From assembly GCF_003334255.1 (NCBI RefSeq), contig NZ_QOWU01000184.1: DNA of 876 nucleotides, one strand, 5' to 3'. Below are positions 25 through 534 of this stretch, piece by piece; position 1 is the first letter of the stretch, and the number at the start of each line of letters is the position of its first letter. This stretch comes from Escherichia coli. Lineage in GTDB: Bacteria; Pseudomonadota; Gammaproteobacteria; Enterobacterales; Enterobacteriaceae. The translations under genes were made by a program, and so were the position numbers. The notes under the pieces are model-generated. The model worked only from the letters and a program-made list of their open reading frames with translations. It did not search any database and had not been told where the DNA came from.

Positions 25-534
25 GTGGCTACGCAGACTGAAGTTGCCAGGCATTTAAGTCTGACCGATCGCCAGCTTCGCAGATTGCAGAAATTGCCGG
101 GTGCCCCGATATCGAATAAGCGAGGGCAACTGGATCTGGATGCCTGGCGCGATTTTTACATATCGTATCTGAGAAGAAGTAAAAACGATGTGCCTGATGG
201 CGATAGCGAAGACGACTATGAGGAGAAATTGCTTATTGCCAGATGGGAACTGACAGCAGAACAGGCTGTTACACAGCAGTTAAAAAATGAGGTGTCAAAA
301 GGAAAACTTATTGATACCGGGTTCTGTATTTTTGCCCTCAGCAAGCTGGCAATGGCGTTATCCAGTACGCTTGATTCCATCCCTTTATCCATGCAGCGAC
401 AGTTTCCTGATTTAACACCGCGCCATCTTGACCATCTGAAAACCCTTATTGCGAAGGGGGCAAATCAGTGTGCGCGGGCGGGGGATAAATTACCGGATTT
501 ACTCGATGAATATATCAGAGCAACAACTGAATAA
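25..534 (+). CDS. nu1: Phage terminase small subunit, lambda Nu1-like (DNA-recognition subunit for cos packaging), 169 aa, apparently complete
   Basis: Open frame from GTG at 25 to TAA at 532-534, bounded upstream by an in-frame TGA at 19-21. The N-terminus (TQTEVARHLSLTDRQLRRLQ) resembles the lambda Nu1 helix-turn-helix region as I recall it. The C-terminal half (TGFCIFALSKLAMALSSTLDSIPLSMQRQFPDLTPRHLDHLK ... LPDLLDEYI) closely matches recalled lambda Nu1 (TAFCTFVLSRIAGEIASILDGLPLSVQRRFPELENRHVDFLK ... IPGLLSEYI). A lambda gpA-like gene follows immediately and overlaps it, which is the lambda arrangement. SD-like GAGGTGA lies upstream of the GTG. Confidence 0.93.
   Translation: MATQTEVARHLSLTDRQLRRLQKLPGAPISNKRGQLDLDAWRDFYISYLRRSKNDVPDGDSEDDYEEKLLIARWELTAEQAVTQQLKNEVSKGKLIDTGFCIFALSKLAMALSSTLDSIPLSMQRQFPDLTPRHLDHLKTLIAKGANQCARAGDKLPDLLDEYIRATTE

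Follow-up and report, generated by a model that had tools for sequence, protein, structure and literature searches.

Results

The window, that is, the whole stretch of 876 bases analyzed here, contains one complete open reading frame and the beginning of a second, both on the plus strand, to which all coordinates given below refer. The complete frame (25..534) is the gene for a Nu1-like terminase small subunit (TerS). It starts with GTG, encodes 169 amino acids and ends with a TAA at 532–534, and the RefSeq CDS WP_000235436.1 has the same coordinates as the frame in the ORF list. The second (506..876) is the 5' part of a gpA-like large-subunit gene (TerL), as defined by its translation and by the RefSeq and GenBank CDS starts. 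Its frame is open from ATG 506 to the window end and continues beyond, the full gene encoding 642 amino acids. Prophages in many E. coli chromosomes contain DNA that matches the window at 100% identity, a related copy is found in 1530 of 5426 complete genomes, and the temperate phages PhiR12_1, _2, _4 and _5 match the window at 99.5% identity.

TerS matches the Pfam family Phage_Nu1 (PF07471) over residues 49–150 (E = 1.4e-18) as well as PHROG 57 (terminase small subunit, residues 1–169) and PHROG 1790, and residues 73–164, in its C-terminal half, share 46% identity with residues 86–177 of lambda Nu1. For TerL, Pfam domains were assigned on the full-length gene of a 100%-identical locus (L001), which contains GpA_ATPase (PF05876, E = 7.3e-56, residues 48–293) followed by GpA_nuclease (PF20454, E = 1.2e-71, residues 323–601). 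The family assignments of TerL by Pfam and by PHROG agree with its similarity to lambda gpA, with which it aligns 1:1 from residue 1 at 66% identity over residues 1–639. A phmmer search of PDB sequences with TerL residues 1–123 returned no match.

A separate observation concerns the N-terminal part of TerS. Residues 1–72 (window 25–240) gave no BLASTP alignment to lambda Nu1, the Phage_Nu1 match begins at residue 49, and residues 2–90 match PHROG 7289, a family labelled 'unknown function'. This suggests that the N-terminal part of the protein, which is presumed to bind DNA, may be a cosB-recognition domain of other specificity joined to a lambda-like C-terminal half.

The two genes overlap out of frame by 29 nt (506..534). 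The putative TerL start codon ATG (506..508) lies inside the TerS codons GAT|GAA (Asp161–Glu162), and its A is the second base of the Asp161 codon GAT, which sets TerL in the +1 frame relative to TerS ((506 − 25) mod 3 = 1). Read in the TerS frame, the overlap corresponds to the tail (D)EYIRATTE plus the stop codon TAA (532..534); read in the TerL frame, it corresponds to MNISEQQLN(N). These 29 bases would hence be read twice, once for the final TerS residues and once, in the +1 frame, for the initial 9 to 10 of TerL. Translation from 506 gives MNISEQQLNNMMSAV..., and the N-terminal TerL peptide predicted for this start is (M)NISEQQLNNMMSAVTTALQPLIR. A pair of further in-frame ATGs, TerL codons 11 and 12, is located at 536..541, 1 nt past the TerS stop. 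The context of the first is TAATATG, spanning the stop codon at 532–534, and both ATGs are rival or possibly secondary starts. An earlier, sequence-only reading of this DNA had called the large-subunit ATG at 506, the small-subunit stop at 532–534 and the 29-nt overlap between them, and the ORF list and the translation bear out all of these coordinates. That reading had also pointed out that a start at 506 would yield the MNIS of lambda gpA and place Y46, K76 and K84 at their lambda positions. This is confirmed by the alignment of TerL with gpA, which is ungapped from residue 1 to 300 and beyond, so that the three residues carry lambda numbering.

We compared the junction across lambda, phi80, HK225, phage 21 (two records), ev017, Gifsy-1, PhiR5_1 and 240 IMG/VR loci (ca. 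245 loci). The IMG/VR loci were gathered by three TerL queries; the first scan gave only relatives with 97–100% identity, and the diverse junctions were contributed by two additional scans that used the TerL of PhiR5_1 and Gifsy-1 as queries. Anchoring on the invariant W33 motif reduced the set to 42 distinct junction sequences, which comprise at least nine N-terminal sequence types. At aligned codon 1, a start codon is present in 41 of these 42 haplotypes (ATG, but GTG in lambda, phi80 and HK225), while ca. 5% would be expected by chance at one given aligned codon. The length of the overlap conforms in 41 of 42 haplotypes, too: it is 26 nt in the lambda type (lambda, phi80, HK225) and otherwise 29 nt, including the phage 21, Gifsy-1 and PhiR5_1 types. 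The TerS codon that provides the first two bases of the start codon is always GAT or AGT and never the synonymous GAC or AGC. At the protein level, the alignment of six TerL subtypes is gap-free from M1 onward, with Y46, K76 and K84 as invariant columns, and residues 1–10 are conserved (MNISEQQLNN, MNTSEKQLNN, MSISRQQLNN). This junction alignment of lambdoid terminase operons agrees with the proposal, made from the sequence alone, that ATG 506 is the conserved start of the large subunit.

Several lineages carry in-frame stops at codon 0, −4 or −7, which exclude earlier TerL starts in these relatives. The lambda type is the strictest case, since a TGA stands in frame directly before the GTG and no other start precedes W33, so that the embedded start is forced. 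Two upstream candidates in the window, a GTG at codon −11 and a TTG at codon −18, were rejected: neither is conserved, relatives have stops in frame at the positions just given, and an exact-sequence look-up in the protein collection found the 653-aa TerL that would begin at the upstream GTG on no contig.

On the downstream side, codons 11 and 12 hold no start codon in the PhiR5_1 (MNTSEKQLNNFAVV), phage 21 (MISDAQKAANAAG), Gifsy-1 (MISGERRANNANR) and lambda types, in which the next candidate start is codon 17 to 31. Among the 42 junction haplotypes, the ATGs corresponding to 536/539 are confined to the window-type clade and one further locus (L247). ATG is kept at codon 11 in all window-type haplotypes, some variants having ATG GTG instead of the double ATG. 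The ATG ATG at 536–541, which the sequence-only reading had regarded as later in-frame codons that would give a truncated protein, is thus a lineage-specific methionine pair and not the start of the family.

The single exception among the 42 haplotypes is L103, whose codon 1 reads CAG and which has a TTG at codon 0 and an ATG at codon −6, both within TerS; judged from this arrangement, its TerL would have to use one or the other. The TerL subtype in question (QTTLESQIHKFV...; L103 997–1030, proteins P0005 and P0010), which lacks a codon-1 start, appears in databases with inconsistent starts, either the ATG at codon −6 (649 aa, 75 contigs) or an inner ATT (635 aa, 10 contigs).

Across 48 haplotypes of the window-type clade, nucleotide diversity is 0.0057 in the 29-nt overlap, against 0.043 in the flanking 30-nt stretch on the upstream side and 0.22 in that on the downstream side. 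The overlap is therefore the least variable stretch around the junction and is under extra constraint, as expected for dual coding. We also counted synonymous and nonsynonymous changes in the overlap for each frame, using 45 pairs of 10 junction types. With 43 synonymous and 256 nonsynonymous changes in the TerL frame and 68 and 221, respectively, in the TerS frame, neither frame is favored, and the counts accordingly provide no independent proof of TerL-frame translation across 506–535.

Immediately downstream, comparison of window 541–600 with L073–L089 and L106 revealed two variants of TerL residues 13–30, SAVTTALQPLIRALPVTP and AAVSVALQPLVRVVPMTA. The TerS tail and the overlap ahead of them are identical in both cases, and divergence sets in abruptly right past the overlap, which suggests that a recombination boundary may lie at the junction. 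At the DNA level, similarity to other lambdoid terminases is not regained until window 590 or so (near TerL residue 28), a pattern that fits a joint divergence of the TerS C-terminus and the TerL N-terminus.

To rank initiation signals, the energy of the best duplex between the 16S 3' tail and the 17 nt that precede each candidate start was calculated. For ATG 506, it amounts to −3.3 kcal/mol, which ranks at the 37th percentile when every position of the 6.9-kb locus is scored and is indistinguishable from background. The values for 536 and 539 are −2.1 and +0.4 kcal/mol, respectively. The TerS start (window 25), a GTG preceded by the SD-like GAGGTGAGGA (15..24), reaches −7.2 kcal/mol (6th percentile of background), and the W start −9.5 kcal/mol. 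For the TerL starts of relatives, we obtained −5.7 kcal/mol for lambda A (CCGGGG), −6.6 kcal/mol for PhiR5_1 (CCGGAG), −6.4 kcal/mol for Gifsy-1 and −6.8 to −7.3 kcal/mol for phage 21. What is left in the window is a residual SD-like GGA (495..497), 8 nt upstream of ATG 506 and within the TerS codons CCG GAT. Relatives have CCG GAG or CCG GGG at these codons, which encode Pro-(Gly/Glu/Asp), and the change from Glu to Asp (GAG to GAT) in the window lineage has cut the SD-like GGAG to GGA. RNA folding revealed no significant start-masking structure, the fold of window 466–575 having an energy of −23.6 kcal/mol (z = −0.33).

The next junction of the operon lies outside the window (L001 5418–5434). 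There, a strong SD precedes the start of W (head-tail joining), which is located 17 nt ahead of the TerL stop; the corresponding A/W overlap of lambda is only 4 nt.

In the RefSeq/PGAP annotation, TerS occupies locus positions 3025..3534 and TerL 3506..5434, i.e., window 25..534 and 506 onward (WP_001309424.1), and the GenBank record of PhiR12_1 also starts TerL at window 506. By exact-sequence look-up, the 642-aa form beginning with MNIS occurs on at least 1000 contigs, compared with two contigs for a 632-aa form (from M11) and one for a 631-aa form (from M12). Two further expectations of the sequence-only reading can be assessed against these data. Its remark that no strong SD precedes 506 holds, as the site scores no better than random positions. 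Its prediction that gene callers would miss or mis-start TerL fails, given that both RefSeq/PGAP and GenBank use 506 and that the at least 1000 contigs stand against three with truncated forms. The truncated entries, such as WP_012602758.1 and WP_426093057.1, are themselves probably mis-starts, to judge from the comparative data.

Discussion

We interpret the window as a standard Nu1/A-type TerS/TerL junction of an E. coli lambda-like cos prophage, in which TerL would be translated from ATG 506, and assign this reading a probability of about 0.88. The conservation of the junction indicates that ATG 506 is very probably the real TerL start. For lambda, purified gpA was reportedly N-terminally sequenced in the 1980s.

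An opposing reading lets TerL begin at ATG 536 (or 539) by termination–reinitiation and treats MNISEQQLNN as an untranslated accident of an open frame. The location of ATG 536 only 1 nt downstream of the TAA at 532–534 is a favorable context for reinitiation, ATG is retained at codon 11 in all window-type haplotypes and L247, a few database records begin there (WP_012602758.1, WP_426093057.1), and the SD of ATG 506 does not stand out from background. The SD is even weaker at the two downstream ATGs, however (−2.1 and +0.4 kcal/mol), and the TerLs of PhiR5_1, 21, Gifsy-1 and lambda, which lack a start at codons 11/12, all retain a start at codon 1 and have 32 residues ahead of W33 throughout; lambda has no possible start other than its GTG at codon 1. 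Residues 1–10 are also conserved as protein, and the TerL N-terminus is a TerS-binding element (PMC10810279, PMC9026076), so that the loss of 10 residues would probably matter. Taking these points together, we regard a sole start at 536 or 539 as highly improbable. Alternatively, both starts could be used: full-length TerL would be made from 506, and 536/539 would give rise to a minor isoform that is shorter by 10 or 11 N-terminal residues and differs in its binding to TerS. The frame does contain two candidate starts, each with a weak SD, the position of ATG 536 would suit ribosomes that reinitiate once TerS translation has ended, and the clade preserves the double ATG, barring some ATG GTG variants. 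In such a scenario, a sub-lineage in which the SD decayed (GGAG to GGAT) and a new Met-Met arose 1 nt past the TerS stop might produce TerL from the two starts, and the shorter TerL, without the first 10 residues of its TerS-binding N-terminus, might tune holoenzyme assembly. Against this, Met-Met (or Met-Val) at positions 11–12 are equally ordinary residues of an N-terminal helix, and the ATG pair is absent from all other subfamilies, so that dual initiation would be no general property of the system. We consider it very unlikely, both as an account of the overlap and as a specialty of this sub-lineage.

As a further alternative, the overlap could be the site of a programmed frameshift producing a TerS–TerL fusion, and the openness of the TerL frame over 22 codons upstream of ATG 506 in the window lineage might speak for it. 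In lambda, phi80 and HK225, however, the codon adjoining the start on its 5' side is an in-frame stop, such stops occur at codon −4 or −7 in other lineages, the overlap (ATGAATATATCAGAGCAACAACTGAATAA) on inspection contains no slippery heptamer of the type X XXY YYZ, and the folding analysis showed no significant RNA structure. The in-frame stops of relatives together with the lack of a slippery site effectively refute such a fusion, and we give it next to no credence.

Returning to translation from ATG 506, the weakness of the SD makes a dependence on upstream translation plausible. Since this SD does not exceed background, TerL initiation at 506 would be inefficient. It could be helped by ribosomes that translate TerS through the site, that keep the site unstructured, or that reinitiate after terminating 26 nt downstream. 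We put the odds that TerS-translating ribosomes assist initiation at 506 at about even. Under coupling of this kind, TerL would not exceed TerS in amount, which would agree with a TerL1:TerS2 protomer, to which the protomer mass of 115 kDa corresponds (PMC10810279). Termination–reinitiation has general support for overlaps of 1 and 4 nt (PMC6728339); for a start 26 nt upstream of a stop, reinitiation has been documented less well than coupling of the ATGA or TAATG type.

The protein segments encoded at the junction are those through which the subunits interact. The lambda small subunit shows poor binding to TerL when its last 30 residues are missing, and the N-terminal domain of TerL includes a TerS-binding domain (PMC9026076). 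In an AlphaFold model, a four-helix bundle of TerS anchors the N-terminal helix of TerL (PMC10810279), and the TerS–TerL interaction is also contained in Table 2 of PMC3224144. The overlap thus encodes mutually binding segments, the C-terminal one of TerS and the N-terminal one of TerL, which places the junction inside a co-inherited two-gene interaction module and physically ties together the two elements that mediate subunit binding. The embedded start is a conserved feature across the whole lambda-like terminase family; beyond correct annotation, in which the overlapped start is right, its importance is small.

Comparison with known terminases

In lambda (NC_001416), nu1 (191..736) and A (711..2636) overlap by 26 nt. 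The window shares the gene order and relative frame of this pair, and in both the TerL start is embedded in the TerS codons for a (S/D)-E-Y-I motif. Both large subunits begin with MNIS and have identical residue numbering at 66% identity, and the C-terminal halves of the small subunits are 46% identical. The overlap is 29 nt in the window versus 26 nt in lambda because the window TerS is one codon longer after the motif. Further differences are that lambda uses a GTG after an in-frame TGA, whereas the window has an ATG with an open frame upstream, that the SD-like CCGGGG of lambda is somewhat better (−5.7 versus −3.3 kcal/mol), and that the N-terminal residues 1–72 of the window TerS do not align with lambda Nu1.

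Phage 21 (X02501; gp1 189..737, gp2 from 709, the record being incomplete at its 3' end) has the identical 29-nt overlap, with the ATG in the TerS codons GAT|GAT, a TAA stop and a potential SD annotated in the record. It differs in the TerL N-terminus (MISDAQKAAN versus MNISEQQLNN) and the TerS tail (DDFRRAEGS versus DEYIRATTE), in a better SD (−6.8 to −7.3 kcal/mol) and in the lack of an in-frame ATG at codons 11/12. The other phage 21 record, M23775 (L005), carries a 39-nt tandem duplication of the junction (ca. 712–750 and 751–789), in which GGTGGATCGATGATTTCAGACGCGCAGAAGGCAGCTAA occurs twice and which is absent from X02501 (L250) and from all wild relatives. The duplication un-overlaps genes 1 and 2 and places the annotated gene 2 start in the second copy; M23775 may be an engineered or hybrid-phage sequence and not wild-type phage 21.

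An anomaly of a different kind is found in the Gifsy-1 record from LT2 (L006, NC_010392), which lacks one C relative to a near-identical IMG/VR contig (L170), ca. 32 nt upstream of the TerL start (locus 905). The missing C frameshifts the TerS C-terminus, which ends in ...ASGRAPR instead of ...ASGRAATIADVEKWTDDFRRAQGE, so that both the TerL-binding tail and the 29-nt overlap are lost. The missing base reflects either a real defect or an error of sequencing.

Among the closest phages, PhiR5_1 and PhiR12_1 (GenBank PV340545, PV340549) have the same 29-nt overlap annotated. The junction of PhiR12_1 is the same as that of the window, while PhiR5_1 differs in having GGAG as SD and in lacking the downstream ATG ATG. 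With the 26-nt nu1/A overlap of lambda and the 29-nt overlap of phage 21 X02501 both present in the records, the arrangement has long been known. The TerS/TerL overlap of the window is an ordinary example of it, a known feature of a known family that is already annotated as such.
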